From the NCBI GenBank assembly GCA_963768175.1, contig CAVYGQ010000001.1, positions 190,305 to 254,304 of the forward strand: a stretch of 64,000 nucleotides of DNA, written 5' to 3'. Positions 6,237 through 54,424 of this stretch are shown in pieces. Source of the DNA: Candidatus Doudnabacteria bacterium (GTDB lineage Bacteria > Patescibacteriota > Doudnabacteria > UBA920). Position 1 is the stretch's first letter. Each line of letters starts with the position of its first letter. The notes beneath the pieces are model-generated. The model did not search any database and was not told the origin of the DNA. It worked only from the letters and a program-made list of their open reading frames with translations. A program made the position numbers and the translations under genes.

Positions 6237-6316
6237 ACTGATACCAATCCACGAATGGGATACGAATGGCATGAATTCGTAACATTCGTAGGAATTTGTA
6301 TATTAGTATCGCTTAA

Positions 6317-21166: not shown

Positions 21167-21220
21167 AACAATGGGCACCATTGGATTAAGGCATTGTTCA
21201 GACCAATGGTGCCCATTGTT
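21167..21220. repeat. palindromic repeat element, 18-bp perfect arms AACAATGGGCACCATTGG / CCAATGGTGCCCATTGTT (copy 1 of 2)
   Basis: Same arms found at 54373-54424. Confidence 0.8.
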
Positions 21221-27704: not shown

Positions 27705-27732
27705 AAAATCTTCCTTATTTAAGGAAGATTTT
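27705..27732 (+). terminator. rho-independent terminator after secF
   Basis: aaaatcttcctta-ttt-aaggaagatttt. Confidence 0.6.
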
Positions 27733-27748
27733 ATTTATCTTAAAACAT

Positions 27749-27778
27749 TTGACAATTAAGCTTATTTTATGCTATACT
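27749..27778 (+). promoter_or_regulatory. sigma-70-like promoter TTGACA-18 bp-TATACT, followed by an 11-bp perfect inverted repeat AATTCATAACT/AGTTATGAATT in the 5'UTR
   Basis: Consensus hexamers; the inverted repeat at ~27808-27850 is a candidate operator. Confidence 0.45.
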
Positions 27779-27913: not shown

Positions 27914-28996
27914 ATGGGAATCCTAGATACCATAATCCACACCAAGCAAAATGAATCTTTAAGCCGGTTTAAACCTTCCGACGTAGTTAAAGAAATTTTA
28001 GATTTACTCAAAGAGCGCGACAGGCGTATTTTAATCCAACGCTACGGCTTGGAAGGCTTCGAGAGCCAAACTTTGGCCGCCATCGGCAAGGAACAAAATT
28101 TAACGCGCGAAAGGGTCAGGCAAATTGAGAAGGACCTTTTAAAAAACTTAAAGAAAACCAGCCTTCAAAAAGAAAGTTTTGCTTCAGCGAAAAATTTTTT
28201 GCTTGACATTGTCGCCGAACACGGCCGCATTATTGCCGAAGAAAGCCTTTTGATGTATTTGAACATTAACGACGCCAAAGAACGGAACGCGTTAATTTTT
28301 ATTTTGCATTTAATCGAAGAGCTTGATCACTTCATCCACGAAAATTATAAAAACTCCTGGGTCTCTGTTTTATTCAAACAGGATTTGCTCTCCAGTTTTG
28401 TAACCGAAAGCAAAAAAATTATAAGTGAAAAAAATACCCCGCTCCCGGCCGCGGAATTTTTGGAACATTTCAAGCAGACACAATTTTATAAGCAAAACCA
28501 GGCCGAACTTTCCGACCGCATAATTTTAAATTATTTGGAACTCACTGTAGAGATTGAAAAAAACGTTTTTGGCCACTGGGGGCTGAGCTTGTGGAAAGAA
28601 GTTAGGCCAAAAGACGTCGGCGATAAAGCTTTCCTGGTAATGAAGCACCACAAGAGCCCGGAGCATTATTCTACGATTACCGATATGATTAATAAAGCCG
28701 GGTTTGACGAGCGCAAGGCTTACAAAGAGACCGTGCATAATGAGTTAATTAAGGACCAAAGGTTTATTTTAATCGGCCGCGGAATTTACGCGCTTTCCGA
28801 ATGGGGCTACAAGCCGGGCGTGGTGGCGGAAGTAATAGTGGAAATTTTAAAGCAATCAGACCAGCCGCTGAGCAAAGAAAAGATTATTGAAGAGGTATTA
28901 AAACGCAGGATGGTAAAAAAGAATACTATTTTAGTCGGACTTTCAAATAAAAAGCTTTTCCAGAAGGTCGGAAAAAATTCTTACGCATTAGCATAG
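27914..28996 (+). CDS. sigma-70 region-4 domain fused to a C-terminal HARE-HTH-like domain (atypical transcription factor)
   Basis: N-terminus ERDRRILIQRYGLEGFESQTLAAIGKEQNLTRERVRQIEKDLLKNL matches sigma70_r4; C-terminus ...HYSTITDMINKAGF...KDQRFILIGRGIYALSEWGY resembles the HARE-HTH of RNAP delta. Confidence 0.55.
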   Translation: MGILDTIIHTKQNESLSRFKPSDVVKEILDLLKERDRRILIQRYGLEGFESQTLAAIGKEQNLTRERVRQIEKDLLKNLKKTSLQKESFASAKNFLLDIVAEHGRIIAEESLLMYLNINDAKERNALIFILHLIEELDHFIHENYKNSWVSVLFKQDLLSSFVTESKKIISEKNTPLPAAEFLEHFKQTQFYKQNQAELSDRIILNYLELTVEIEKNVFGHWGLSLWKEVRPKDVGDKAFLVMKHHKSPEHYSTITDMINKAGFDERKAYKETVHNELIKDQRFILIGRGIYALSEWGYKPGVVAEVIVEILKQSDQPLSKEKIIEEVLKRRMVKKNTILVGLSNKKLFQKVGKNSYALA

Positions 28997-29165: not shown

Positions 29166-30518
29166 ATGGAAGTTTTAACAAGCATATTGCCGAATTTCAG
29201 AGAAGTTTTCCATATAGCCTTTTTGGTAATAGTTACCTATTACGGATGGGTGCTTTTTGTTTTAGGGCTTGTTTATATGCTTTATTTTGAATATTTGGAA
29301 GAAATCCAGGCACAATATGTTAAAGCTACCGAGTGGGTATTCCTACATATTTTAGTGCCAAAGGAAAATACAGTAAGCACGTTGGGGGTGGAAAATATTT
29401 TTGCCCAAATGCACGCGCTTCACAGAAGCCTAACTTGGCATGAAAAGTATGTTGAGGGGAAATTCCAATTGTGGTATTCCCTGGAAATAGTCAGTTTGGG
29501 CGGTGTAGTATCTTTTATTTTAAGAGTACCGAAGCGTTCCCAGCATCTGGTTGAATCCGCTTTTTACGCCCAATACCCGAGTGCCGAAATCCATGAGGTA
29601 TCGGATTACATGGAAAACTTCAAATTGGACCCTTACAATGACGATAACCAGTACGATTTTTTCGGAACAGAATGGAAAATGGCCCAGGATAGCGTTATCC
29701 CCATAAAAACCTATAAAGAGTTTGAACATCCTTCGGCCGAAGAAAAAATTATAGACCCGCTTGCCAATCTGATTGAAACCATGGAGCGGGTTAAGCCGCA
29801 CGAATTTTTATCGTTGCAAATCCTCATCCAGCCTATCCAAAATGACGAATGGGAAGAGCGAGCCGTAAAAAAAATAAAAGAGCTGACTGGCGAGGAAATT
29901 CCGCACGAAGCTTCAATCTTAGGCTTTTTCCTAAGGCCGCTTCACTGGTTTGCCGGTTTTAATTACAAAGAAACCTTTTTTGGTTCCCATGGTGGCCACG
30001 CCGAGCAGGAAAACAAACCCAGGAATAACTGGCTGAACATGAGCGAAGGGGAAAAGGGGCGCGTGACTCTAATTGAAAATAAAATTAACAAGGCCTGTTA
30101 TAATACCAAAATAAGATTATTGTACATGGCGCCCAAGGCCGAATATGACAAAGGCAGGCGTTTTGAACTAATCGGCGCGCTTAGGCATTTTAGCCCTGGT
30201 GGCGGGGCCGGGATGCACAACACGCTTAAGGTTGACTCGCATATCTGGACAAAGGTAGATCCATACTTTTCCGAGGCTTTGGAAGCGTACTTTTTGGACA
30301 GAATTACAAAGTACAGAAAATATTGGTTTTTACGGGGCTACAAAAACCGCAGTATTTACGTCGGATCACCGAAGTTTTTACTGAGTACGGAAGAACTTGC
30401 CACGTTATTCCATTTCCCGATTACTTTTGAAACCACGGTAGCGCCAGCCCAAGTGCAGGCCATAGCCAGTAAAACCGCCAGGCCACCGGCAGACTTGCCG
30501 ATTGCCCAGACCGAGTAA
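29166..30518 (+). CDS. hypothetical membrane-anchored protein (partner of the downstream ATPase)
   Basis: Single N-terminal TM region HIAFLVIVTYYGWVLFVLGLVYMLYF; no recognisable domain. Confidence 0.5.
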   Translation: MEVLTSILPNFREVFHIAFLVIVTYYGWVLFVLGLVYMLYFEYLEEIQAQYVKATEWVFLHILVPKENTVSTLGVENIFAQMHALHRSLTWHEKYVEGKFQLWYSLEIVSLGGVVSFILRVPKRSQHLVESAFYAQYPSAEIHEVSDYMENFKLDPYNDDNQYDFFGTEWKMAQDSVIPIKTYKEFEHPSAEEKIIDPLANLIETMERVKPHEFLSLQILIQPIQNDEWEERAVKKIKELTGEEIPHEASILGFFLRPLHWFAGFNYKETFFGSHGGHAEQENKPRNNWLNMSEGEKGRVTLIENKINKACYNTKIRLLYMAPKAEYDKGRRFELIGALRHFSPGGGAGMHNTLKVDSHIWTKVDPYFSEALEAYFLDRITKYRKYWFLRGYKNRSIYVGSPKFLLSTEELATLFHFPITFETTVAPAQVQAIASKTARPPADLPIAQTE

Positions 30519-30525
30519 TTGCTTA

Positions 30526-30624
30526 AAACTTTCTTTACCAACTACTAATTTTACGAATATACCAATGTTCGTTCTCAGAAGTTAGTATATTAGTATCGAT
30601 TCGTAGTTAGTAAAGTCAGTAATT
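30526..30624 (+). repeat. ~100-bp conserved intergenic element (copy 1), ending 5 nt before the start codon
   Basis: aactttctttaccaactactaatt...agttagtatattagta..gattcgtagttagtaaagtcagtaatt, near-identical to 48459-48555. Confidence 0.8.
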
Positions 30625-30629
30625 AAAAA

Positions 30630-32444
30630 ATGGATAACGACGAAAACAGAATTACAATTTTTGCCAAAACCAACTTCCGCAACAAGGAAGTGCCTTTTGG
30701 CATTAAAACCGACGACCGCCGCCGCCATATGTATTTAATCGGGAAAACCGGCATGGGCAAAACCACGCTTATGGAAAATATGGTCATTCAGGACATCCAA
30801 AACGGTCACGGCGTGGCATTTTTGGATCCGCACGGCGATTCAGTCAAAAGAATTTTGGACTGCGTCCCATCAAACCGAATAAACGACGTAATTTATTTTA
30901 ATCCAGCAGATTTGGAATACCCCGTGGCTTTCAATATTTTGGAATCGGTTGATCCAAAATACAAACATTTGGTGGCTAGCGGGCTTATGGGCGTTTTTAC
31001 CAAAATCTGGGCTAATTTGTGGTCAGCAAGGATGGAATACATTTTGAACAATACGATTTTGGCTTTGCTGGACAGCCCGGGCAACACCCTTTTGGGAATT
31101 ACCAGGATGTATGTGGATAAAAAATACCGCAAAAAAATCGTGGATAACATTAAAGACCCCATGGTCCGCGCTTTTTGGGTAGATGAGTTTGCCAATTATA
31201 ACGAAAAATACCGCACCGAAGCCATTGCGCCAATCCAAAATAAGGTCGGGCAGTTTTTGAGCTCCGGCATTATCCGCAACATTGTCGGGCAGCCAAAAAG
31301 CACAATAGACCTGCGCGAAATCATGGACAACCGTAAAATCCTGATTATGGATTTGTCCAAGGGAAAAGTCGGCGAAGACAACTCCGCGTTGCTTGGCGCC
31401 ATGCTGGTAACCAAAATCCAGCTGGCCGCCATGTCCCGCACGGACATCGACGAAAAAGACAGAAAAGACTTTTACCTTTATGTGGACGAGTTCCAGAATT
31501 TTGCCACCGAAAGTTTCGCCACAATTTTAAGCGAAGCCCGCAAGTACCGCCTTAACTTAATTGTCGGCCACCAGTATATTGCCCAGCTGGAAGAAGACAG
31601 AAGCACCAAAGTCCGCGACGCGATTTTCGGTAACGTCGGGACGATTATTATATTCAGGATTGGCGCCGTAGACGCCGAATTTTTGGAAACTGAATTCGAG
31701 CCGATTTTTACCCCAAGCGACCTGGTTAACTTGCCCAAGTATTCAATTATTTTAAAATTAATGATTAACGGCGTGGCTTCGGACCCGTTTTCCGCGATAA
31801 CTCTCGCACCCAACCCTACCCATCTTACGGGCAACCAGGAAAAAGTTTTAAAAGTTTCCAGGGAACGTTATGCCAACCCCGCCTCTGAAGTTGAAGAAAA
31901 AATTTCCCGTTGGATGGGCGCGGAATATCACCAGGAATCGGCTTTACTGATAGGCAGCGAAGAACAGCAACCGTCGGAGTCGCCCGAACAAAACCAGCAG
32001 CCCGTTGAACGGCCAAAGCCGCAGGCCCAAGAGAAAGCTGAAGCCGAAGCTCAAAAAAATTCGGAGCCTAAAAAGCCGGCTGAATCGCCCCAAAGGCCGT
32101 TTATTGAAAAAAAGGGCCAGGTTTTCAGGCAACCGGAAAAAGCTCGCCAGCAAAAAGACCGGCCTCACAGGCAACAGCAAAACCAACAGCCAAGGCAGCA
32201 AACCAAAACCAATGTCAGCAACCGCGGCCAAGAATCAAGGACCCAGCAAAAAAGGGAAAACCCCATTTGGGATAAAGTTGCGAATTTTCAACAGGAAAAA
32301 ATTAACCAAGCAAACAAAAAAACCGGCGAGGCCGTGGCTCAAATATTAACCCAGTCTCCACAACCCGTCGTTCCAAAGCCGCAATTAGAATCGGGAACAG
32401 TAGAAAAAAAAGTTCTAAACCCAGGCGAATTGCACAAACTATAA
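30630..32444 (+). CDS. VirD4/TraD/TrwB-like FtsK-HerA-superfamily P-loop ATPase (AAA_10/TraG-D_C-like) with ~190-aa low-complexity Q/P/E/K-rich C-terminal tail
   Basis: Walker A LIGKTGMGKTT followed by AFLDPHGD (compare TrwB VDPNGD); Walker B FYLYVDEFQNF; GHQY; disordered tail QQPSESPEQNQQPVERPKPQAQEKAEAEAQ... Confidence 0.6.
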   Translation: MDNDENRITIFAKTNFRNKEVPFGIKTDDRRRHMYLIGKTGMGKTTLMENMVIQDIQNGHGVAFLDPHGDSVKRILDCVPSNRINDVIYFNPADLEYPVAFNILESVDPKYKHLVASGLMGVFTKIWANLWSARMEYILNNTILALLDSPGNTLLGITRMYVDKKYRKKIVDNIKDPMVRAFWVDEFANYNEKYRTEAIAPIQNKVGQFLSSGIIRNIVGQPKSTIDLREIMDNRKILIMDLSKGKVGEDNSALLGAMLVTKIQLAAMSRTDIDEKDRKDFYLYVDEFQNFATESFATILSEARKYRLNLIVGHQYIAQLEEDRSTKVRDAIFGNVGTIIIFRIGAVDAEFLETEFEPIFTPSDLVNLPKYSIILKLMINGVASDPFSAITLAPNPTHLTGNQEKVLKVSRERYANPASEVEEKISRWMGAEYHQESALLIGSEEQQPSESPEQNQQPVERPKPQAQEKAEAEAQKNSEPKKPAESPQRPFIEKKGQVFRQPEKARQQKDRPHRQQQNQQPRQQTKTNVSNRGQESRTQQKRENPIWDKVANFQQEKINQANKKTGEAVAQILTQSPQPVVPKPQLESGTVEKKVLNPGELHKL

Positions 32445-32478
32445 AAAAATTCCCGGTTGACCGGGAATTTTTTTATTT
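32443..32478. terminator. bidirectional terminator between the ATPase gene (+) and trxA (-)
   Basis: aaaaaaattcccggt-tga-ccgggaattttttt. Confidence 0.7.
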
Positions 32479-36883: not shown

Positions 36884-37215
36884 AAGGGTGGCATTAGGAA
36901 TGTTTTTTTAACGCACGGCTTAAAATTGACGCCAAAAAACTCCTGAAGCCCAAATTCAATAGAGTTTGGCCTTCTTAAAAAGATGCCCCCAACAGAAATC
37001 AAAATAAAGCCGGAATGCTGGAGGGGAGAGAATATTTCCAGTAAGCTTTTTAGAATTACCTTCACAAAAACCGCCGCGCTTTCCGGCCTTAGGCGGGTCA
37101 GCCTCGGACTGATGCTATGCGCGGGGTTTTTGTTTTTTGGCTTTGGGCTTGCCGGTGGGCTCCGTGGTCAGTGAGCGGGTGCTCCAATAACCTTAAGGTC
37201 AAGCAGACAAACCAT

Positions 37216-40200
37216 ATGTCCCTGTACCAAAAATTAAAACAAACTTCCCTTCGACCCCCCCACTGGCACCAGTATCTTGTCCCTTATGGGGTGGCTTTGG
37301 CTTTTCTCGTGCTCTTGTCCCTGGCTTTGCTGCCAACCTTCAGCCATCCGGTTAAGGCCGCGGCTACTACTTATTATATTGATTATGCCAGCGGCAGTGA
37401 TTCTTATAACGGAACTTCAAAAGCTACACCTTGGAAACACGCGCCGGGGATGCAGGGTTTCTCTGCTTCTTACACTCATCAGGCCGGAGATGTTTTTATT
37501 TTCAAAGGCGGCGTGACCTGGGGCGAAACCAATTGGAAAATGACAGTGAACGGTGGCGGTACGAACGGCGACCCCGACTACTATGGTGTCGACAAGACTT
37601 GGTACACGGGGAGTTCGTGGGCGCGACCGATCTTCGATGCTGAAAGTGCATCAATTAGCGGTAATGGAATTATGATTCAGGTTGAAGCCGGTTATGTTAC
37701 CTTTGACAACATCGAGTTTAGGAACCTCGTGAGTGCGTCTTCTGCCGCAACGAAGTACATCGGGATAGACAGCCAGTCTAACATTCTGGTCGAGAATTGT
37801 TATTTTCATGCGTGGGACCAGGTGTACTTCAACATCTCGACGATTAGCCGAAACTCAAGTGGGGTGGTGACCGTGACAACAGCAGGGGCGAATGATTTTA
37901 CCACCGGTATGAACTTGGTCGTTTCAGGCGTCACAGACAATTCATTCAACACGTCGTGCGGCAATCACTGCGGCAGTCCTACGGGGTCCATCACGGTCAT
38001 GAGCGGGACGCAATTTATTTACACGAGTGCGAATATGACGGCAGCAAGTTCCAGCGGAGGCATTGTCAGTGACACTGATCAGGGCATGGGAGTTGTGACA
38101 TGCGGCGGAACTTGCACCTCGAATGAGGTGACAAATTGCCTGATTGAAAATACGTCTTTCTCCACCGTTCACAATTCCGGCGAGGTATTTCAAGGTATCA
38201 ACCATATCGACCACAATACGATACACGATGTTGCCTCGGTCGCTTCCGGGGTTAACGTCTTTGATGACAACCTGATCTACGACGTAAGCTACCCGACGGC
38301 CGATTTTGACGCTTCTTACCATACCGATGGTGCCTACCAGGTGTACTCTGGAGCCATATACAACAACGTCTTCTATAACTACGGCGCGAATGAGACGGCC
38401 CTCTACCCGAACCCAGAGGGCGATAACTCCACGTGTACCCCAAACACCGTAAGCATTTACAATAACGTCTACTTCCCGCTGGCAGCACCCGATACCGTGA
38501 ACATGGTGGACATCAATGACTCTTATTATACGGGAGCGGGCGGGTGCGACACGATCAACATTTACAACAATACCTTGGTGGCGAATGGCTTGGTCGATGC
38601 TGTCCGAGTGATCGGCAGGGGGTCAGGAATTGCCAACCTGAACGTTGAAAACAACCATTTTATCAATTCGACAGGTGCGGTAGAACTTTGCTTTAATATG
38701 AGTGGCTGTGGCAATGCGGCGACAGTTACCAATACTAACAACATCTGGCAGTCAACAGCGACGGCAACCGCGCAAGGCTATACGACCTCCGAGGTATATG
38801 CTTATTCCCCAGTTTCAGGCGGCGCAACGATCGGAGCGGGCGCAAATTTAACGGAGGTCTGTTCTGGGAATCTTGCAGCACTGTGCAATGACACTACTTT
38901 TGGCAATAGCCGCACAACGGTAAGTCGTCCCGCCTCCAGCGCTTGGGATGCCGGCGCTTACCAATATCAGACAGCTCCGTTAGCCAATGTCTATATTGCC
39001 CAGACCGCCCAAGGTTCAAACAACGGTACTTCCTGCGCCAATGCCAAAGCCGTCTCCTTCTTTAACACTGCCGGCAACTGGGGTACCGGCACCGGCCAGA
39101 TTGGCCCCGGCACCACGGTACACCTGTGCGGGGTGTTTTCTACCGCAACTCCGAACACTTCTATGCTCACGCTCCAAGGCAGCGGCTCATCTGGCTTACC
39201 CATCACAATTTTGTTTGAGAGTGGCGCTCAATTGAATTCTCCTGCCTGGGGAGCGAACGGCGCAATCAATCTGAACGATCAGAATTACATTACTATCGAC
39301 GGAGGCACAAACGGGCTTATTCAGAACACTGCCAACGGGACCAGTCTGACTTACCATCAGGCTTCCACGATGGTGTACCAGCCAAGCATTTCCGGGTCGG
39401 TACATGACATTGAAATTCGTAATCTTACGTTTACAAACAATTACGTGCGTGTGGCAAACACCGCGTCGGACGAGGCAGCCGCTGGTGGCAGCGGTGTCAT
39501 CGTTCTCTTGTCTGCGGGAAGCAACATCCTTATTCACAACAACACGATGACAAACTGCGGAAACGGTGGTATTGGCGTGTCTGGAAGCAACACGAATTCT
39601 ACGAATTGGCAGATATACAGCAACACTATTAGTCAGGCATCCTGGCTCATCAATGTGGCTAACGTCAATAGCCAAACCCACTATATCTTCATCCATGACA
39701 ACGATCTGTCAAACAACGATCAATACTGGGACACAACCCTAGTAAATTGCGGAGATGATTGCCCATACTTTCACAACAATGCAATTTTCCTTTATGGCAA
39801 TCCTACCGGCGGAGCCACGGGAACCTATGGCTATGCCTATATCTATAACAATTACATTCATGGTGCGCTAGGGGTCATGACGGGTTTCATATTCGCCAGT
39901 CTCACGACGGATGGCCCAATCTATGTCTTTAATAACGTGATGAAGCCGACATCAACCTACACTGGCGGTCCTAGTAACCTAGCCTGCAACGCGGATGGGT
40001 GGGTAGCGCTGCCCTGGCAGACCCTAGACGTTCACGTCTATAATAACACCTTCAATGCGAGTGCAGCCTGTGGAAATAGCTCTCCCAGCCCCTACAACTT
40101 CGGCACCAGGACCACCGTATCCAACGCGAGCACGTTGGACTGGGTGAACAATATAAACTATTATGTCTCCGGCCACGACATTGAGGATGGGGCTATTGGC

Positions 40201-43200
40201 ACCTCGGATTACAACGTCTGGTATGGAATTAGCTCGGGAGGGGAGCCCCAGCAGGCGTTCAAGTGGAACGTCTCAAACGCAGGCTGGTGGTACTACTACA
40301 ACACATCTTGCCCGAGATGGACCTATAGCGCGGCGCAGAACACGAGTTGCGGAGAATCCGGCGATCCTCGCCCATCCGCATACGATATCCACGGTGTCAC
40401 AGGAGACCCGAAGCTATCCACAACCGACCAGCTAGGTGCTGGGTCTTCGGCAATAGGGCTTGGGACGAACCTAACATCTGTCTGTAATTCAGATTCGAAT
40501 CTGGCTCCTCTGTGTCTGGACAAGTCCGGCACCGCCCGTCCCGCCTCCGGTGCCTGGGATGCCGGCGCCTACCAATACGCCACCAGCACCGACACCACCC
40601 CTCCCGCCGTGGCTTGGGTGTCTCCGGCCTTAAATGCCACGGTCTCCGGAACCGTCACCCTCACCGCCTCCTCCACCGATAACGTGGCTGTTTCCACCAC
40701 GTCCTTCTATGAGGGTAGCTTCGGCAGCAGTCTTGCCTCCAGCACCCTCATCGGCTCCACCTCCACCCCCAGCGGTACCCTATATTCCATACCCTGGAAC
40801 ACGGCCTCTCTTACGAACGGCTCCACCACCCTCTGGGCCCTCTCCACCGACACCTCCAGCAACACCACTACGGCCTCCAGCACGGTCAATGTGGAGAATC
40901 CACCTACAATCTCTGCCGTCTCCACCTCCACTGCCACCAGTACCGCCACCATCACCTGGACCACGAGCCACACCGCCTCTTCCCAGGTCAACTACGGTCT
41001 CACCTCCGGCTACGGCTCTTCCACCGCCACCTCCACCCTGGTCACCAGCCATTTAATCACCCTAACCAACCTTACGGCTAGCACCACTTACCACTACCAG
41101 ATCCTCTCCACCGACGCCCAGGGAAACCCAGCCACCACGACGGATGCGACATTTGTGACCATGGCTTTAAGCTCCCGCACCTTCTATATCGATCTCGTAT
41201 CTGGCAACGATTCCCAAGCTGGAACTAAGTTAGCCCCCTGGAAACATGCCCCCGGAATGACGGGGTTCAGCGCAACCTACAGCCATGCCGCAGGAGACCA
41301 ATTCATTTTCAAAGGTGGGCAGACGTGTGGTTCGAGCGGCACCCCCTGCTTCACATCCTGGACTATTTCTAACTCCGGGTCCGCTGGGGCGGGACATGAT
41401 TACTATGGGGTTGACCAGACATGGTATGCCGGAGCCTCATGGTCAAAACCTGTTATTGATGGCGGCCACAAGAACCCCGTGGTTGCCGACCCCTATATTG
41501 AAATCACGGGCTCCTACGTCACCATGGACAGTCTGCGCGTGCAGAACATTGGCGTAACTCCCGCAGAGAACGGTGGAACGGGACTGAATCAAGGAAATTA
41601 TGCCGTTGAGCTTACCGGAGGCAATCACGACATCTTGATTGAAAATATGGTATTGCCTGTGGAGAGCCGGATCGCCATTGCTTTTATAGAGTCTGGAACT
41701 CCGAACAATATTGAGATCAAAGGGAATGATATTTCCGCATGTTCATGGGGACTGGGCGGTGGCGGAGGCGTCGGCACGGGCTTTTCTTTCCATGACAACG
41801 TCATCCATGATTTCCACGACCAGATGGCAAGCGGGGCCCATGGAGATGGCCTGTACATTTTTGGTGACGCCACCAGCTACCTTGTAAGTCCTCTTATTTA
41901 CAATAATTGGGGCTATGGCGACTTCTCGCCGTCTGAACTCGGGCAGCGGGGCCGGGATGACCGCGTTTCTGTGGATTTCCGCCGCTTCCGGGAACCTGTA
42001 CGCGTACAACAACCATTGGACGGAGAGCGACACAACAGGAGGAACAGCACATGCGTTAAGCTTTGGCGGACCAGATGCAAGCGTACAGCCCAACGTCTAT
42101 ATCTACAACAACAGCATCCAGCAGAACGCGGTGTCGTACTACGGCATTTCGGTTGACCAAGCCGCGAGCGCGGTCGTTGAAAACAACATCGTTATCGGCG
42201 GCAGCGAGGCTCTGACCTTCGGGCAGTATCAGAACGTCAGAAGCGTAACCAGCGACTACAATGATCTCTACGGGTTCACCGCTTATGCCGCTACTGTCAA
42301 TGCCTCGGCATACGGAAGCTGGGCGAGTTTCCATTCAGCCGGATACGAAGCTCACGGCTTCAATACCGATCCCAAGTACGTAAATCCGACAGATTCCGGA
42401 AGCGGTGGCAACTTGCATTTACAATCCTCATCGCCTCTCGTTGGGCAAGGGGTCAATTTGTATTCGATATTCACCACCGACGCGGACGGCATTTCCCGTC
42501 CCGCCTCCGCCGCCTGGGACATCGGTGCTTACCAGTATGCCACCTCCACCCCCACCTACACCATCGGCGGCACCATCAGTGGCCTGACCGGCACCGTAGT
42601 GTTGCAGAATAACGGGGGAGATAACCTCACTACCTCTGCCAACGGCGCCTTTACCTTTGCCACGGCCACCACCAGCGGGGGAACGTATAATGTCACGGTC
42701 TTAAGTCAGCCCTCAAACCAGACCTGCAGTGTCAGCAACGGCAGCGGCACCGTCTCTAGCGCTAACATTACCAGTGTTACCGTGTCCTGCACCACCAATT
42801 CCTCTGGAGGTGGTGGGGGAGGCGGCGGCTCATCAGGCGGTGGCGGGGGAGGCGGTGGGGGATCAATTGCCCCTGTTTCCTCAACTCCCCAGCCCGGTGC
42901 TCCAAGTACCTCAACCTCTCCCTCGGTCTTGCGCCTGATTAACTCCTCCGGCACCCTCTATCTCATTAAGGGGGGCTACCGTTACGGTATTACCTCCCCG
43001 GGCATCCTCTACAGCTATGGTTTTGACTTTCCGGATGCCAAAGCAGCCACCACCGCTGATTTAGCCATACCCTTGGGCAGTTTGCTCCTGCCCGGCAACG
43101 GCTATCTGGTTAAATCTAACCAGGACAAGACAGTTTACCTCATTTCCAACAACCGGCGTTATGCTTTTGTCTCTGCCCAGGTCTTTACCGCCCTTGGTTT

Positions 43201-43483
43201 CTCTTTTAGCCATGTCTTTATTGTCACCAACCCGGAACTGCAGTCCTTGCCTAGAGCCGCTGACCTCAGCAACGGCCAATCGGCTCATCTGCCCGGCTTA
43301 GACATCAACAAACAAGGCACCATCTACTGGATTGGGGGGGACAGCACCCTGCACGGTTATCCGTCCTTAGCTGTTTATAACAGTTGGCACAAAGATAATG
43401 ATTTTTCACAAGTAGTTCCCGCTAATACCGCTGATATGTCTATGCCCATAGGTGGTCTGGTGGAGGCAAGGACGCTGGAGTAA
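37216..43483 (+). CDS. giant (~2,090 aa) secreted multi-module right-handed beta-helix / Ig-FN3 / poly-Gly / C-terminal triple-repeat surface protein, GC-rich, reading frame interrupted by an apparent frameshift near 41,930-41,960
   Basis: ORF-track pieces 37117..42156 and 41915..43483 overlap in different frames. Signal peptide VALAFLVLLSLALLP; three NxxxN-rich beta-helix modules each capped by RPASxAWDxGAYQY; near-duplicate module N-termini (TTYYIDYASGSDSYNGTSKATPWKHAPGMQGFSASY / TFYIDLVSGNDSQAGTKLAPWKHAPGMTGFSATY); T/S-rich FN3-like region; G8-SS-G10 linker; three ~50-aa C-terminal repeats. Confidence 0.7.
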
Positions 43484-46230: not shown

Positions 46231-48453
46231 ATGAAAAAAACCACCAAATTTACACTGTATACCCATCACCGAAGGTTTTTAACGTTGGGGACAAAAAGCA
46301 AGCCCTGGCACAGTTTTTTTGCCAAACTAGCCGGCATAATTTTTGGCATTTTTTATTTTATCGGAATGGCAATTTTGGCAATATTTAATTTTTTAAAAAA
46401 AATTATACTCACCCTTTGCTACAACATCGGTAATATATTGGTTACCCAGCCCCTCAAAGCTTATAAAGCATTAAAACAAGATATAAAAAATACCGGGAAC
46501 ATTTTTCCTAAACGCTTAAAGCTTTTGTTCCAGAAAAAATTTGCGAGGGCTTTACTGATATTTTTATGCTTTTCTGCCATAGGTTACGGCGGTATTATTT
46601 TTTTGCATTTAGTAGCAACCGGCCTTGAACTAAAAAACGAAATAATACAAACGGCCGCCTTGGGCGATGCTTATTTATCGCAAGCCAAAGACGCTTTGGC
46701 TTCCCAAGATTTCTCTACTGCCGATAATCGTTTTGCTCTGGCTTTCCAGACATTCAACCAAGGGGAAAACGAGCTGTCCTCATCAGGCCAACTTTTAAGC
46801 CAGCTGATGTCTGTTTTGCCTCAAAAGCAAACGGCGGCTGGTTTGCTTGAAGCCGCGGCTTTGGTTTCTTCTGCCGGACAGGATTTCATTTCATTGCAAA
46901 GCCAAATTAAATCGTTGCAAATTGGCCAGGGCGGCATAAGCTCCAACAATGGAACCACCAAGGATACTTTAGAAGCAATTAACTCCCAAATAAACGCAAT
47001 TTCAGATAAAATTTCCAGTGCAAACAGCCTCATCGACAACATTAATCAGAACTTTTTACCTGCCGCAAACCAGGAAAATTTTGCCAACTTAAAAACTGAA
47101 TTACAAATTGCCCAATTCGCCCTAAATAATTTTACTTCGGTTTTTGGTTTTATAAAAAATTTGCTGGAGGGAGATAAAAACGTTTTGGTACTTTTTGAAA
47201 ATAACAACGAACTTCGGGCCGGTGGTGGGTTTATTGGGACTTACGGGATTTTAAAAATTAGCGACGGACAAATTAGTAAAATTAACGTCAGCAGTATTTA
47301 CGACTTGGATAATCAGCTAACACAAAACATCCAGCCACCGACCCCCTTGTTAAAAGTCGGCGCCAACTGGTATATGAGGGACGCCAATTGGTTTACGGAC
47401 TTTCCACTGTCGGCGGCAAAAGTTAGTAATTTTTACGAGATGGAAGGAGGCGAAACCCCTGATTTGGTTATTGCTATGACGCCAAACCTAATTGTTGATT
47501 GGCTAAAAATTACCGGGCCTATCGCTCTTCCTAACTTCGGCGTAACTTTGACTGCCGACAATTTTGTGGAAGAAACCCAAGTAGTAACCACTATAAGCAA
47601 CAATTTGCCCACCAATTCTCCCAAACAGATTTTGGCCGATTTGGTTCCCATACTTTTACAAAAAATCAGCCAGAGCCCGTCTTCTGAATGGCCTCAAATT
47701 ATCCAAAGCCTGCAGGATAATTTAAACAACAAACAAATTGTTATTTACTCGCGCGACAGCGGTCTGGAAAGCCAACTTAAACAATTTAACTGGACGGGTT
47801 CGGTAAATAATACCGACCGTGACTATCTATCCGTAGTTTCCAGCAACCTTGGGGCTACAAAGACCGATCTTTACGTGGACCAGCAGATTAACTTAACCAG
47901 CGTTGTGCTGGACGACGGCTCTATAATTAATGAACTAAATATTACTCGGACCAATAAGCTTCCGAACTTGCCGGATACCTTTAACAACAGCTTCTTAAGG
48001 ATTTATGTGCCTTTGGGAAGCAAACTTATTAGCAATCTTGGGTTTGACTATGTAACTTTGGATTATCCCTCGGGAAAAAATTACCAAATTGATCCAGATA
48101 TTTATAACTGGGAGAAAAATTCCGTAAAAGACGTGGTCAGCGGAACTTATATTGGCCAGGAGAGCGGCAAAACTTTTTTCGGCAATTGGCTAAATCTTGA
48201 CGGTGGGCAAACCCGAACGGTTAAGCTCGTCTATCAGCTGCCTTTTAAATTAAGCGGCACGGACAAATACAGCCTGCTTTTGCAAAAACAAATCGGCAGC
48301 ACAAATGACGACTTCAACTGGACTTTTAATTTTGCGAGCCGGAAAATTGTCTGGAAAAATTTTGACGCGCAAACCCTTAACACAGACAACCTGAATTCTG
48401 ATATAATACTGGGCAAGGATTACTTTTTTGGGATGGTATTACAAAAGAGATAG
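46231..48453 (+). CDS. large membrane-anchored extracytoplasmic protein (possibly DUF4012-like)
   Basis: N-terminal TM helices; conserved ENNNELRAGGGFIGTYGIL motif; otherwise no catalytic signature recognised. Confidence 0.4.
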   Translation: MKKTTKFTLYTHHRRFLTLGTKSKPWHSFFAKLAGIIFGIFYFIGMAILAIFNFLKKIILTLCYNIGNILVTQPLKAYKALKQDIKNTGNIFPKRLKLLFQKKFARALLIFLCFSAIGYGGIIFLHLVATGLELKNEIIQTAALGDAYLSQAKDALASQDFSTADNRFALAFQTFNQGENELSSSGQLLSQLMSVLPQKQTAAGLLEAAALVSSAGQDFISLQSQIKSLQIGQGGISSNNGTTKDTLEAINSQINAISDKISSANSLIDNINQNFLPAANQENFANLKTELQIAQFALNNFTSVFGFIKNLLEGDKNVLVLFENNNELRAGGGFIGTYGILKISDGQISKINVSSIYDLDNQLTQNIQPPTPLLKVGANWYMRDANWFTDFPLSAAKVSNFYEMEGGETPDLVIAMTPNLIVDWLKITGPIALPNFGVTLTADNFVEETQVVTTISNNLPTNSPKQILADLVPILLQKISQSPSSEWPQIIQSLQDNLNNKQIVIYSRDSGLESQLKQFNWTGSVNNTDRDYLSVVSSNLGATKTDLYVDQQINLTSVVLDDGSIINELNITRTNKLPNLPDTFNNSFLRIYVPLGSKLISNLGFDYVTLDYPSGKNYQIDPDIYNWEKNSVKDVVSGTYIGQESGKTFFGNWLNLDGGQTRTVKLVYQLPFKLSGTDKYSLLLQKQIGSTNDDFNWTFNFASRKIVWKNFDAQTLNTDNLNSDIILGKDYFFGMVLQKR

Positions 48454-48458
48454 CCTGT

Positions 48459-48555
48459 AACTTTCTTTACTAACTACTAATTCATACTAATATACTAATG
48501 CACAAATCCAAAGTTAGTATATTAGTAAAGATTCGTAATTAGTAAAGCCAGTAAA
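48459..48555 (+). repeat. ~100-bp conserved intergenic element (copy 2), ending at the murJ start codon
   Basis: aactttctttactaactactaatt...agttagtatattagtaaagattcgtaattagtaaagccagtaaa; homologous to 30526-30624. Confidence 0.8.
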
Positions 48556-50142
48556 ATGCTAAACAAACTCAAGAACCTAGAACAGAATTTTTCCGTTTCC
48601 AAAGCCGCAATTATTGTGGGCTTTTTTACGCTGCTATCCAAATTGGTCGGATTAATCCGCGATCCGCTGCTGGCCGGAAAAATCGGGGTAGGCGACAGCT
48701 TGGATATCTATTACGCGGCTTTTCGCATCCCAGATTTTATTTTTAATTTGCTGGTATTGGGAACTTTGTCGGTCGCGTTAATCCCCGTTTTTACCGAATG
48801 GCTATTAAAAGACAAAGATAAAGCCAACCGCATTTCCAGTTCCGTTTTAAATATTTCCGTATCCGGCATGGCGGCAATCTGTTTAATTTTACTTATTTTC
48901 TCCGCTCCGCTGACAAAAGCTTTGGTTCCGGGGTTTTCGGGGGACAAACTTGCTCACACCATCCAGTTAATGAGATTGTTTTTACTGTCGCCGATTATTT
49001 TTACCGCTTCCAACGTTTTTACAAGTTTTCTGACTGCGAGCAAAAAATTCCTGGTGTTGAGCATCGCCCCCATTATGTATAATTTGGGCATTATTTTTGG
49101 CCTGTTCTTTTTTTACCCGCATTTTGGCTTAATGGGTTTGGGCTACGGCGTAATTTTAGGCGCGCTTTGCCACCTGCTAGTGCAAATCCCGGAAGCCGTG
49201 CGTTTTGGCTGGCGTTTTAAAGCGGTGATAGATTGGCACGAGCCCACGCTGAAAAAAATCGCCAAACTGTTTATACCCAGGATAATCGGAGTGGATATTT
49301 CCCAAATTAGTTTGATTGTCGGCACCACCGTTGGTTCCATTTTAGCCGCCGGTTCCGTTACCATTTTTAACCTTGCCAACAACTTACAGGCTGCGCCATT
49401 GGGAATTTTTGCGCTTTCCATATCGGCTGCCTCATTTCCGCTGCTTTCCGAGCATTACTCCAAAGGCGATAACAAGGCTTTTTTAAAAACTTTGGCCGAC
49501 AACGTCATAATGGTCCTGTTTTTTATTATCCCGATTACAATCTTAATGCTAATCTTCCGCGCCTATATTGTGCGCATTATTTACGGCCACGGAAAATTTA
49601 ACTGGAACGACACGGTTTTGATGTTCACGACTTTCGGCATCTTAACTTTTTCCCTTATCGGGCAAAGCCTTTCGCCGCTGTTTTCACGCAGCTTTTACTC
49701 CCGCCAAAACACGATTATCCCGGTTATGGTCAATATTTGCTCCATAATTGTAGATATAATTTTGGCTTACGTCTTGGGAAAACAATTCGGTTTGGTAGGC
49801 ATTGCCGGCGGTTTTGTTATTGCCTGCACACTGGACGCGCTGGTAATGTTTTTATTTTTGCGCTGGTATTTGCATAAAAGCGATATCTCGTTTACGGATT
49901 TTGACAGCGAAGTAGGGCACTTTCTGGTTAAACTTTTGTTCTCCAGCATTGTAATGGGCCTTGTCGGTTATGGCGGAATTTATGCTTTTGCGCCTTTAGT
50001 CAACACCCGCACAACTTTGGGAATAATCATCCAATCCGGCCTGGCCGTTACCATTGCCCTGTTGGCATTTTTAGTTGTGTCCTATAAAATAGGCATACAG
50101 CAAACTAAAAGGGTTTTGGGGATCATAAGAAAAGTGTTCTAA
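48556..50142 (+). CDS. murJ: lipid II flippase MurJ (MviN)
   Basis: 14-TM MOP-family protein; N-terminus SKAAIIVGFFTLLSKLVGLIRDPLLAGKIGVG typical of MurJ. Confidence 0.85.
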   Translation: MLNKLKNLEQNFSVSKAAIIVGFFTLLSKLVGLIRDPLLAGKIGVGDSLDIYYAAFRIPDFIFNLLVLGTLSVALIPVFTEWLLKDKDKANRISSSVLNISVSGMAAICLILLIFSAPLTKALVPGFSGDKLAHTIQLMRLFLLSPIIFTASNVFTSFLTASKKFLVLSIAPIMYNLGIIFGLFFFYPHFGLMGLGYGVILGALCHLLVQIPEAVRFGWRFKAVIDWHEPTLKKIAKLFIPRIIGVDISQISLIVGTTVGSILAAGSVTIFNLANNLQAAPLGIFALSISAASFPLLSEHYSKGDNKAFLKTLADNVIMVLFFIIPITILMLIFRAYIVRIIYGHGKFNWNDTVLMFTTFGILTFSLIGQSLSPLFSRSFYSRQNTIIPVMVNICSIIVDIILAYVLGKQFGLVGIAGGFVIACTLDALVMFLFLRWYLHKSDISFTDFDSEVGHFLVKLLFSSIVMGLVGYGGIYAFAPLVNTRTTLGIIIQSGLAVTIALLAFLVVSYKIGIQQTKRVLGIIRKVF

Positions 50143-50167: not shown

Positions 50168-52402
50168 ATGTTCCAGAACAACATCAGAAATTTCTGCATC
50201 ATCGCTCATATTGACCACGGTAAGTCCACGCTGGCTGACCGGCTTTTGGAAATTACCCACACAGTCAGCAAGCGTGACATGAAGGACCAGCTGCTTGACC
50301 AAATGGATTTGGAACGGGAAAGGGGAATTACAATCAAGCTGCAACCTGTCAGAATGCAATATACGCTGACTAACACGGACAGTAAACGGACTAACGCGGA
50401 AGGCAATTTGTTATACGAGGATTTAACTTACAAGATAAGAGGGGCTGTATTTGAAGTCCGCAGGCAAATCGGCCCGGGCCATAAAGAAAGTGTTTACCAG
50501 AACGCCTTGGCTTTAGAGTTCAAAAAACGAAATATACCTTTTGAAAAGGAAAAACGCATTGATGTCTTGTATTACGATAAAAAAGTCGGCGTTTACCAAC
50601 CAGATTTTTTAATAGATAATAAAGTATTACTGGAAACCAAAGCTTTGTCATTTATTGGAAAGAATGAAGAGAGACAGGTTTGGCATTATTTAAAAGGTAC
50701 TCCATATAAACTCGCTCTATTAGTCAACTTCTCTTCTGCCGGCGCCGATATCAAACGGATTATTAATACTCCGTTACAGTCCATTTCCGAAAAGTCCGTT
50801 CCTAGTCCATCACCGTCAGTGTACACATTGAATTTAATTGATACGCCAGGGCATGTGGACTTTAGTTACGAAGTTTCGCGATCCCTTGCCTGCTGTGAAG
50901 GCGCAATTTTAGTCGTGGACAGCACGCAAGGCATAGAAGCCCAAACCTTGGCCAACGTCCACTTGGCACAGGAGCATAATTTGGTTTTAATCCCGGTGGT
51001 CAATAAAATAGATTTGCCAAACTCCGACCGTAAACAAACCGCGGAAGAACTAAAAACCGTTTTTGGCTTCACGGACAATGAAATACTTTACGCCTCGGGG
51101 AAGACCGGCGAAGGCGTGGAGGATATTTTAAAAGCGGTAATCAAAAAAGTTCCTCCTCCGGTCGGCGACGAACAAAAGCCGTTCCGCGGCCTGATTTTTG
51201 ACTCCATGTACGACATCCACCGCGGCGTGGTAATTTTTGTCCGCTGTTTTGACGGAGAATTAAAAAACCGAGAAAAAGTCTTTACCATCGGCAGCCAAAC
51301 CCAGTTTGAAAGTTTGGAGGTCGGATATTTCCATCCAAAAATGGAAAAGTCCGATGGAATAAAAACCGGCGAAGTCGGCTATATAGTCACCGGTTTGCGC
51401 GACGTCAGCAAGGCCCGCGTGGGCGACACTGTCACGCTGTATGATCGAAAAACCGATGTAAAACAACTGCCCGGCTACAAACACGTAAAGCCGATGGTTT
51501 ATGCCACCATTTTCCCGGTCAGCGGGGATGACTATCCGCTTTTGCGCGATGCCATGAACAAATTAAAGCTTTCCGATGCCGCGCTGGAATTTGAGCCGAT
51601 AAATATTCCTTCCATCGGCTTTGGTTTCCGCACAGGGTTTTTGGGGCTGCTTCATATGGACATTGTACAGGAGCGCCTGACCCGCGAATACAATTTGGAT
51701 TTAATTTTAACCGCGCCTTCGGTGGCTTACCATGTCGTGACAAGCAGCGGAAAAGATTTATACATCCACAACCCGGCGGAGTTTCCCGATCCGTCCATCA
51801 TAAAAGAGCTTTACGAGCCGTGGATGTCCGTAAATATTTTGGTGCCGCAAACTTACATTGGCCCGATTATGGAAATCGCCACCCAGCGCCGCGCCATTTC
51901 CAAAGACATAAAATATTTGGGCAAAAATCGCGTGGAAATGAATTTTGAAATGCCGCTGGCCAATATTATTTCCGATTTTTACGATAAGCTTAAATCCGTG
52001 TCCAGCGGTTATGCCAGTTTGAATTATGATTTAATTGAAGAGCGGGTAGGGGATTTGGTTAAAGTGGATATCTTGGTCGCCGGCGAGCCGGTAGTCGCGC
52101 TGTCGGCAATTATGCACCGTTTTACCGCTACCGCCGAAGGCAAGCAATTAGTGGAAAAACTTAAAACCTTAATTCCCAAACACCAGTTTGAGGTTGCCAT
52201 TCAGGCCGCAATTGGCGGTAAAATAATCGCCCGCGAAACCATCTCCGCCCTGCGCAAAGACGTTACCGGCTACCTTTATGGCGGCGACGTCACCCGCAAA
52301 ATGAAACTTTTAAATAAACAAAAACGCGGCAAAAAACGGATGAAGAGAATAGGTAAGGTGGATATTCCTCAGGAGGCATTCCTTGCTGTACTTAAAAAAT
52401 AA
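50168..52402 (+). CDS. lepA: elongation factor 4 (LepA) carrying an in-frame ~150-aa GxxExxY / PD-(D/E)xK-family domain insertion between switch I and the DTPGH G3 motif
   Basis: [22 protein letters not shown], then insertion ([35 protein letters not shown]...[16 protein letters not shown]...[19 protein letters not shown]), then [24 protein letters not shown] and the complete LepA C-terminus. Confidence 0.85.
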   Translation: [744 protein letters not shown]

Positions 52403-54372: not shown

Positions 54373-54424
54373 ACAATGGGCACCATTGGCCAAAGCCAAC
54401 TTTTATTCCAATGGTGCCCATTGT
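54373..54424. repeat. palindromic repeat element ACAATGGGCACCATTGG / CCAATGGTGCCCATTGT (copy 2 of 2)
   Basis: Same arms as 21167-21220; followed immediately by a terminator. Confidence 0.8.

Follow-up and report, generated by a model that had tools for sequence, protein, structure and literature searches.

A DUF8128 membrane protein and a VirD4-type ATPase encoded side by side in Doudnabacteria as probable halves of one machine, a candidate coupling ATPase of Patescibacteria type IV secretion

In a 64-kb stretch of a Candidatus Doudnabacteria genome (64,000 nucleotides (nt) of contig CAVYGQ010000001.1, hereafter the window), a gene for a membrane protein of 450 amino acids (aa), assigned to the Pfam family DUF8128, is followed by a gene for a 604-aa ATPase. 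We conclude that these two genes probably encode the halves of one membrane-anchored machine, most plausibly the coupling ATPase of Patescibacteria's type IV secretion system (T4SS). This overall judgement, somewhat better than even, is a compromise between two assessments of different strength: that the pair is a split ATPase joining DUF8128 to a motor of the type IV coupling protein (T4CP) kind, of which we are highly confident, and that this split ATPase works with a T4SS, for which we place the chances slightly below even. A role as T4SS motor appears likeliest because close fused relatives of the pair adjoin T4SS clusters and because the homolog from Bacillus phage G, gp156, adjoins VirB4-like and VirB6-like genes. 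Both open reading frames (ORFs) had been described in an earlier interpretation made from the letters of the window alone (the sequence-only reading) and were recovered at the same positions, on the + strand. The genes and their parts are as follows.

29166..30518, + strand, DUF8128 gene (450 aa), from the ORF call
29202..29288, + strand, hydrophobic N-terminal anchor of the 450-aa protein, residues ~13-41 (Kyte-Doolittle maximum of 2.28 at residues 17-35)
30630..32444, + strand, ATPase gene (604 aa), from the ORF call
30630..31940, + strand, ATPase core, residues 1-437, a TrwB/VirD4-type nucleotide-binding domain with a helical insert
30735..30767, + strand, Walker A motif LIGKTGMGKTT, residues 36-46, read from sequence and aligning to the P-loop of TrwB
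31473..31502, + strand, Walker B motif YLYVDEFQNF, residues 282-291, read from sequence and aligning to LWLFIDE of TrwB
31938..32441, + strand, disordered tail, residues 437-604 (~165 aa; Q 18%, E 11%, K 11%, P 11%)
32250..32282, + strand, short linear motif K(K/R)ENPIW(N/D)xVA, residues 541-551, kept inside the tail

The evidence that the two proteins belong together comes from relatives in which they are joined. Both match a single phage protein family of unknown function, PHROG 5156 (824 positions), the 450-aa protein at positions 49-286 and the ATPase at 395-814. Comparison of the DUF8128 family alignment with residues 31-310 of phage G gp156 by hhalign gave a probability of 97.3% (E 1.9e-11), and BLASTP aligned the ATPase with the C-terminal half of gp156 at 28% identity (E 4e-45). 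The link to phages was found through the PHROG profile and the ATPase half only, and a tblastn search of the phage collection with the 450-aa protein returned nothing. A search seeded with gp156 revealed 182 relatives at E <= 1e-5; the best 120 of these are mostly proteins of 725-1140 aa in which DUF8128 occurs together with T4CP-type domains, and their named sources are the Patescibacteria lineages Berkelbacteria, Falkowbacteria, Saccharibacteria and Gottesmanbacteria. The two window proteins match 102 of the 120 listed proteins collinearly, the 450-aa protein at the N-terminal and the ATPase at the C-terminal end. In the fused homolog P0425, residues 34-386 correspond to 48-449 of the 450-aa protein and residues 391-808 to 7-428 of the ATPase, the latter at 62% identity. 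This collinear mapping places the gene boundary of the window in an interdomain linker. The window shares the split in that linker with many Doudnabacteria, ABY1-type and Parcubacteria-type genomes; numerous Patescibacteria, as well as Bacillus phage G, encode a single polypeptide.

The phage protein shares the fused architecture of DUF8128 and ATPase (825 aa; 26% identical in the N-terminal and 28% in the C-terminal part), but it lacks an N-terminal membrane anchor, is a jumbo-phage gene product encoded beside gp155 and gp153, and falls outside both Patescibacteria clades in a midpoint-rooted neighbour-joining tree. SPO1-like Bacillus phages (records H3-H22: SPO1, CampHawk, CP-51 and relatives) carry homologs of the ATPase only, such as gp27.4 of SPO1, which are 23.5-25% identical to the window ATPase over ~90% of its core. 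A structural model of P0425 was of high quality, with a predicted local distance difference test score (pLDDT) of 90.8 and a predicted template-modelling score (pTM) of 0.82. Its best matches in the PDB were full-length TrwK/VirB4 chains (~900 aligned columns, E 1e-14), and its C-terminal half resembled TrwB with a template-modelling score (TM-score) of 0.58-0.65 normalised to TrwB; HerA, DotL and Cag-beta ranked after these.

The ATPase half belongs to the TrwB/VirD4/TraD coupling-protein type, as the sequence-only reading had proposed from the motifs LIGKTGMGKTT, FLDPHGD (residues 64-70) and YLYVDEFQNF, all three of which are found in the 604-aa protein. Pfam places TrwB_AAD_bind at residues 26-344 (56.6 bits, E 2.7e-15, cut-off 20.5), with TraG-D_C (32.7 bits, E 8e-8, cut-off 22) and DUF87 (36.2 bits, E 8.7e-9) likewise above their cut-offs. 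The earlier interpretation had named TrwB_AAD_bind, DUF87 and AAA_10 as the Pfam families to look for; AAA_10 gave no Pfam match at E <= 0.1, nor did P-loop_TraG or CagE_TrbE_VirB, and no Pfam match to FtsK_SpoIIIE was found. Of the NCBIfam models, TraD and VirD4-like (CD1115) matched partially and far under their own cut-offs, and VirB4_plasma matched over the P-loop region only (E 1.2e-3). TrwB and DotL were the only PDB matches by sequence. The P-loop, the Walker B residues DE and the GxQxxxQL motif are in register, the last of these represented by GHQYIAQL (residues 313-320, after Walker B) opposite GLQSTSQL of TrwB. The helices inserted between the two Walker motifs number seven (493-603) in the P0425 model, from which, as a protein 62% identical to the ATPase, the insert of the window protein was judged. 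No 19-residue segment of the ATPase exceeds a Kyte-Doolittle value of 1.6, and the protein thus has no transmembrane-like segment, which bears out the earlier remark that N-terminal transmembrane helices are missing.

Beyond the core, the ATPase ends in the disordered tail, which had been described as low-complexity and ~190 aa long; it is indeed rich in Q, E, K and P, and it is shorter than claimed, beginning at about residue 437. Outside its motifs the tail evolves fast (column identity 0.13-0.20). The short linear motif, also written KKENPIW(N/D)TVA, retains its P and W in 116 and its N in 110 of 120 homologs, and a C-terminal VLxPGExHK is semi-conserved.

The 450-aa half supplies the anchor, as previously suggested, although the relationship proved closer than that of a separate anchoring partner, the two proteins being halves of one that is fused in relatives. 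An AlphaFold2 model built with 24 homologs (pLDDT 75.6, pTM 0.73) has helices at residues 11-25 and 27-54 in the anchor region, which is predicted to form one long or kinked transmembrane helix. The Pfam accession PF26449 (DUF8128) is precomputed on an identical sequence (P0001) and on nearly all listed homologs. Our local Pfam copy matched neither the 450-aa protein nor DUF8128 on fused homologs annotated with PF26449, so that the model is apparently absent from this copy. The local NCBIfam collection returned no match for the 450-aa protein, a single-sequence search of the PDB returned nothing and a search of PDB sequences with the DUF8128 alignment profile returned nothing meaningful. A profile search of 1.84 billion cluster representatives gave 2,416 relatives at E <= 1e-3, of which 775 reach E <= 1e-30; the homologs number in the hundreds and, where source names are credible, all come from Patescibacteria (Doudnabacteria and other groups).

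By structure, the 450-aa model had 13 significant Foldseek matches in the PDB, all of them TrwK/VirB4 chains of the R388 T4SS (E 3e-6 to 4.5e-4). Foldseek gives no residue ranges; since no TrwB, HerA or FtsK chain occurs among the 50 PDB matches listed for this model, the matched part is most likely the non-ATPase N-terminal domain of VirB4. Against viral models in BFVD, it matched two phage G proteins, gp156 and the VirB4-like gp155, and a further two proteins from Bacillus phages. Where the sequence-only reading saw only an anchor, the 450-aa protein is thus predicted to carry also a cytoplasmic domain resembling the N-terminal domain of VirB4, a description that concerns the modelled fold and not proven homology.

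Set beside known secretion ATPases, the pair has likenesses to both coupling proteins and VirB4. With the T4CPs VirD4, TrwB, TraD and DotL it shares a P-loop domain whose Walker A, Walker B and GxQxxxQL motifs align to TrwB, a helical insert between the Walker motifs and a variable C-terminal tail. Unlike them, it has its membrane anchor on a separate protein and a ~370-aa DUF8128 domain resembling the VirB4 N-terminal domain, which is fused to the ATPase in relatives and resides on the membrane-anchored partner in the window; the window pair also lacks linkage to relaxase or mating-pair-formation genes, a linkage seen only in fused relatives elsewhere and in phage G, and its ATPase is conserved like a chromosomal housekeeping gene. 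VirB4 (TrwK of R388, TrsE together with TrsD, or VirB4 together with a TraC-like protein) likewise consists of an N-terminal domain followed by a RecA-like ATPase, and a TraC-like gene 5' of a VirB4-like gene in Patescibacteria T4SS loci parallels the split in the window. In contrast to VirB4, the window ATPase domain matches VirD4-type and not VirB4-type families.

We next consider how the pair is distributed. A scan of gene context with one genome per species returned 78 loci, for which all credible lineage names are Patescibacteria groups; labels such as 'uncultured Gammaproteobacteria' on some metagenome-assembled genomes were read as unreliable. In ~65 of the 78 loci the DUF8128 gene has the ATPase gene downstream of it, directly adjacent in all but a few. 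The conserved order runs secD-secF, a gene for a protein with sigma-70 region 4 and HARE-HTH domains (the sigma-like gene), DUF8128 gene, ATPase gene, thioredoxin, carboxypeptidase and MraY, and in most of the 78 loci, very divergent Patescibacteria included, the sigma-like gene stands directly 5' of the DUF8128 gene. Across 120 clusters the ATPase is 83-98% identical. Thirty-one loci contain all eight genes, and in every one of them the ATPase core is the most conserved of the eight. The median identity to the window proteins in these loci is 86.7% for the ATPase core, followed by SecD (72.6%), SecF (70.6%), thioredoxin (69.8%), MraY (69.1%), the sigma-like protein (67.7%), the DUF8128 protein (49.6%) and the carboxypeptidase (45.1%), with ranges of 81-95% for the ATPase core and 64-90% for SecD. 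Judged by these sequence comparisons, the motor is under strong purifying selection.

Ties to type IV secretion come from the close relatives of the pair. In a neighbour-joining tree of ATPase domains, a rough, midpoint-rooted distance tree without support values that we use for grouping only, the window protein groups with the fused P0419-P0425 proteins (57-63% identity), and the same clade holds a second fused group of ~728-aa, anchor-less proteins that are 50-53% identical to the window protein. Three independent loci of this ~728-aa group are divergently oriented from an adjoining Patescibacteria T4SS cluster with PrgI/VirB3-like, TraC-like, VirB4-like and peptidase M23 genes, and in one locus a T4SS pilin gene. 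In phage G, gp156 adjoins the VirB4-like gp155 and the TrbL/VirB6-like gp153. The description of the module as stand-alone therefore applies within the window and fails for the close fused relatives, which are encoded next to T4SS genes.

Published surveys and genetic data bear on the same question. A survey of 3,035 Patescibacteria genomes reported 5,713 VirD4-type homologs in 2,918 of them, of which only 148 lie near virB4, and TrsD homologs, remote relatives of the N-terminal part of VirB4, that adjoin VirB4 (Quinonero-Coronel et al. 2025, PMC12102498); the window pair resembles these 'T4CP homologues' in its VirD4-type matches and its distance from virB4. In S. epibionticum, the essential T4SS cluster has no recognisable coupling protein or relaxase (PMC10633639), and the transposon sequencing (Tn-seq) table of this species contains two proteins of the window kind, SEML1_0293 and SEML1_0142 (Wang et al. 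2023, PMC10633639), both of which are single polypeptides of ~920-1020 aa in contrast to the split gene of the window. SEML1_0293 carries TrwB_AAD_bind, TraG-D_C and DUF87 from residue ~402 onwards and lies downstream of SEML1_0294, an essential gene annotated 'RpoS' (PMC10633639). Having the same three Pfam domains as the window ATPase and a sigma-like gene upstream, SEML1_0293 is the probable counterpart of the window pair, an equivalence drawn from the pattern of Pfam matches and the sigma-like neighbour and not from sequence comparison.

Several observations weigh against a T4SS motor composed of these two halves. The 40 window ORFs scanned with Pfam include no VirB4, VirB6, PrgI, relaxase or com gene, in agreement with the sequence-only reading as far as relaxase and VirB4 are concerned; its statement that pilus genes are missing nearby is qualified by the sole pilus-related match, a small type IV pilin-like protein (N_methyl) encoded at 954-1421 and thus 28 kb from the pair. 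About a dozen of the 78 loci have a DUF8128 gene without a downstream ATPase gene within the available sequence, and many of these retain the sigma-like neighbour. VirB4 is found in fewer genomes (2,417) than T4CP homologs are (2,918; PMC12102498), and some genomes may therefore use T4CP homologs without a T4SS. SEML1_0293 is non-essential by Tn-seq in a species whose T4SS genes are essential (PMC10633639). Finally, the likeness of the DUF8128 protein to the VirB4 N-terminal domain is structural only, with low TM-scores (0.30-0.37) at a root-mean-square deviation of ~10 Å; the fold matches of the 450-aa model span TM-scores of 0.30-0.49, rigid-body superposition is poor (10-17 Å), and hhalign comparisons of the DUF8128 alignment with TrsD and TrsE (VirB4) of pSK41 and with the Patescibacteria TraC-like protein, all single sequences and hence targets of low power, gave no signal. 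Because of these modest TM-scores and negative profile comparisons, we confine the resemblance to the level of fold.

The lack of T4SS genes in the window, the wider distribution of T4CP homologs and the dispensability of SEML1_0293 also favour a serious rival, namely that the DUF8128-ATPase module is a T4SS-independent translocase exapted, with its own membrane partner, for another envelope or nucleic-acid task. Such tasks might include DNA export or import, chromosome handling or RNA-polymerase-linked DNA handling together with the sigma-like/HARE-HTH protein, or aid to secretion beside SecDF. For DNA uptake, which the sequence-only reading had also raised, the analysis gave neither support nor contradiction. 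The deeply conserved linkage of the pair is to secD-secF and the sigma-like gene and not to virB4, and exaptation of VirD4-type homologs 'cannot be ruled out' in the words of the authors who surveyed them (PMC12102498). Conserved order in streamlined, slowly rearranging genomes is, however, a weak sign of shared function, no other channel partner is known, and both the closest fused relatives, which lie inside T4SS loci, and the phage G homolog, next to VirB4-like and VirB6-like genes, speak for secretion. We consider a T4SS-independent role possible, if on the unlikely side.

The remaining explanations carry far less weight. The sequence-only reading had entertained a conjugation remnant, and a decaying conjugative element whose pair has no current function would agree with the presence of T4CP-type domains and the lack of nearby relaxase or mating-pair-formation genes. 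The pair nevertheless occupies the same chromosomal position, in housekeeping context, in dozens of divergent genomes, its catalytic motifs are intact, the GC content of the region is ordinary relative to the window and no integrase or transposase was seen near it. A core that is more conserved than SecD, SecF, MraY and thioredoxin in all 31 loci rules decay out, and we give this idea next to no credence. Scarcely more credible is an anti-phage defence ATPase, either Mad8-like (of the methylation-associated defence system, MADS) or a HerA-type defence motor, to which the PADLOC mad8 model (3e-17 over residues 26-372 of the ATPase) and weaker HerA matches might point. Likeness to Mad8 is expected for any TrwB/HerA-type P-loop domain, and the match reflects this common fold; no other defence genes are adjacent, the neighbours being sec, sigma-like, thioredoxin and cell-wall genes in an invariant housekeeping order and not a variable island, and the family is near-universal in the phylum. 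A pump for chromosome segregation at the septum, similar to FtsK/SpoIIIE, would belong to the same ATPase superfamily and suit the neighbouring MraY, Mur ligase, FtsW and MurJ genes. It is very improbable, given that the FtsK_SpoIIIE family is not matched, that a four-helix membrane domain and a gamma domain are missing, and that the best matches are TrwB, VirB4 and DotL. A HerA-NurA system, marked by a HAS-barrel N-terminal domain and an adjacent NurA nuclease, was considered as well and does not fit: DUF87 is its only match, HerA ranked below VirB4 and TrwB in the fold search and there is no nuclease neighbour. The Mad8, FtsK and HerA readings were all rejected on context and domain content.

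Returning to the coupling ATPase as the preferred explanation, we propose the following mechanism. Docking of the membrane-anchored 450-aa partner on the ATPase would yield, at the membrane, a protomer of two domains resembling that of VirB4, and such protomers may oligomerise in the manner of TrwB and VirB4. ATP hydrolysis would then recruit or push a substrate, which could be protein or DNA. By analogy with the C-terminal tails of T4CPs and the pairing of TraD with TraM, the tail motif KKENPIWxTVA might recruit a partner, either an adaptor or a substrate. The setting would be the chromosomal, relaxase-less T4SS of Patescibacteria, with the motor encoded away from the virB4 cluster.

The ATPase class itself has already been reported in Patescibacteria; what the present analysis adds is its two-domain architecture, its split form and its relation to VirB4, together with the exceptional conservation of the motor and the T4SS-adjacent relatives. 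In the searchable literature we found no paper on PF26449 or DUF8128 and nothing on this architecture, on the split or on the relation to VirB4, and the searched texts of PMC12102498 and PMC10633639 make no mention of an N-terminal DUF8128 domain, a VirB4-like fold or a split form. A large part of bacterial diversity consists of Patescibacteria, which live on other cells. In the one species tested their T4SS is essential, with no known function or coupling ATPase (PMC10633639, PMC11665869). For this system the locus offers a candidate motor of defined architecture, a membrane-anchored VirB4-like domain and a VirD4-type ATPase, fused or split, in which the natural split site marks a domain boundary useful for expression and interaction studies and the conserved tail motif could serve as bait for partners. 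A further asset is its deeply conserved tie to a sigma-like/HARE-HTH gene that is essential, and the locus also lends structural and functional context to the Pfam family DUF8128.

Fused DUF8128-ATPase proteins also form a second, paralogous clade (L083, 8001-10838; L084, 8001-10487), whose members are always preceded by a small ORF of 114-159 aa without significant Pfam match. One further locus (L085, 2899-8784) contains tandem DUF8128 genes (831 aa and 927 aa), each after a small ORF and convergent with secF-secD. SEML1_0142 of S. epibionticum has a P-loop domain at residues 381-800 without Pfam matches and is essential at all three stages of the Tn-seq experiment; upstream of it lies a small ORF, SEML1_0141, essential from the second stage on, and gyrase genes are nearby (PMC10633639). 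Its context is that of the clade II protein P0450, and we take the SEML1_0141/0142 pair to be a member of the second fused clade that is essential in S. epibionticum.

More tentatively, DUF8128-linked ATPases could be a distinct lineage among the ATPases of type IV secretion, a third one that spans the phylum, part of the vertically inherited core and a candidate for the missing substrate motor of the epibiont T4SS, a view we hold as doubtful at present. An intermediate between VirB4 and VirD4 would be expected to join a VirB4-type N-terminal domain to a VirD4-type motor, the combination proposed here, and the split DUF8128-ATPase may bear on the divergence of these two families. Such a third lineage would include a paralog, SEML1_0142, that is essential in S. 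epibionticum.

Divided ATPases were also encountered among the T4SS genes themselves. A small TraC-like (PF26593) gene lies directly 5' of the VirB4-like ATPase gene in T4SS loci (L087, 2866-5464; L088, 3002-5522), and in another locus (L086, 2264-4122) the VirB4-like ATPase itself is in two pieces. Splitting of T4SS ATPases thus seems to recur in Patescibacteria.

Within the window, the following features flank or separate the two genes.

27705-27732, terminator-like hairpin 3' of secF and 5' of the promoter-like site, putative, from a consensus scan
27749..27778, + strand, promoter-like site TTGACA-18-TATACT with TG, putative, from a consensus scan only
27914..28996, + strand, sigma-70 region 4 and HARE-HTH gene, 360 aa (Pfam Sigma70_r4 5e-12, HARE-HTH 5e-11)
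30518..30629, no strand assigned, AT-rich imperfect palindrome of ~110 nt in the 111-nt spacer, member of a dispersed repeat family
32441..32476, no strand assigned, strong terminator-like hairpin (16 pairs and a T-run), putative, from a consensus scan

From these signals in the DNA, the promoter-like site may mark the start of a three-gene transcription unit, and the hairpin at 32441..32476, common to the ATPase gene and a convergent thioredoxin gene, may mark its end. The 40 ORFs of the window that were scanned with Pfam are ordinary chromosomal genes, among them those for S9, a two-component pair, glycosyltransferases, MurG/MurC-type enzymes, SecA, peptidase M1, SecD, SecF, thioredoxin, D-Ala-D-Ala carboxypeptidase, MraY, Mur ligase, FtsW, MurJ, LepA and ATP synthase subunit a.

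The sequence-only reading had placed a conserved element of ~100 nt before the pair. The element lies instead between the two genes and so precedes the ATPase gene alone, and it is one copy of a dispersed palindromic repeat, lodged in the spacer, rather than a leader dedicated to the pair. Its predicted RNA fold has an energy of -26.1 kcal/mol (z -4.4). A second copy (48450-48561), 85-91% identical and with a fold z of -6.4, lies in front of the MurJ gene, a partial copy occurs at 6285-6314, and related copies are present in other Doudnabacteria loci (L016, L006 and L008), that of L016 (4930-5050) between the sigma-like gene and the DUF8128 gene; the copies sit in intergenic spacers just 5' of start codons. 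Rfam gave no match near the locus, and as no compensatory base-pair changes were found in the intergenic palindrome, its interpretation as a structured regulatory RNA was dropped. Across loci, the spacer between the DUF8128 and ATPase genes falls into two size classes, 1-20 nt and ~80-125 nt; most of the long ones contain hairpins that differ between lineages, which argues that there is no single conserved leader.

A second type of repeat in the window is a 52-nt palindrome with a perfect stem, ACAATGGGCACCATTGG...CCAATGGTGCCCATTGT, whose two copies (21168-21219 and 54373-54424) are 81% identical. Elsewhere, a GC-rich block on the + strand (37117-43483; GC 0.51-0.57 versus ~0.42 in the rest of the window) comprises a 1679-aa ORF and an overlapping 522-aa ORF, both with internal 70-nt repeats and without Pfam match, and may represent a giant surface protein with a frameshift or a segment of foreign origin. 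The LepA (EF4) gene (50168-52402, + strand, 744 aa) carries a complete domain of the PD-(D/E)XK nuclease superfamily inside the GTPase domain (Pfam PDDEXK_3, 3e-32, residues 85-198), which is thereby divided into two stretches.

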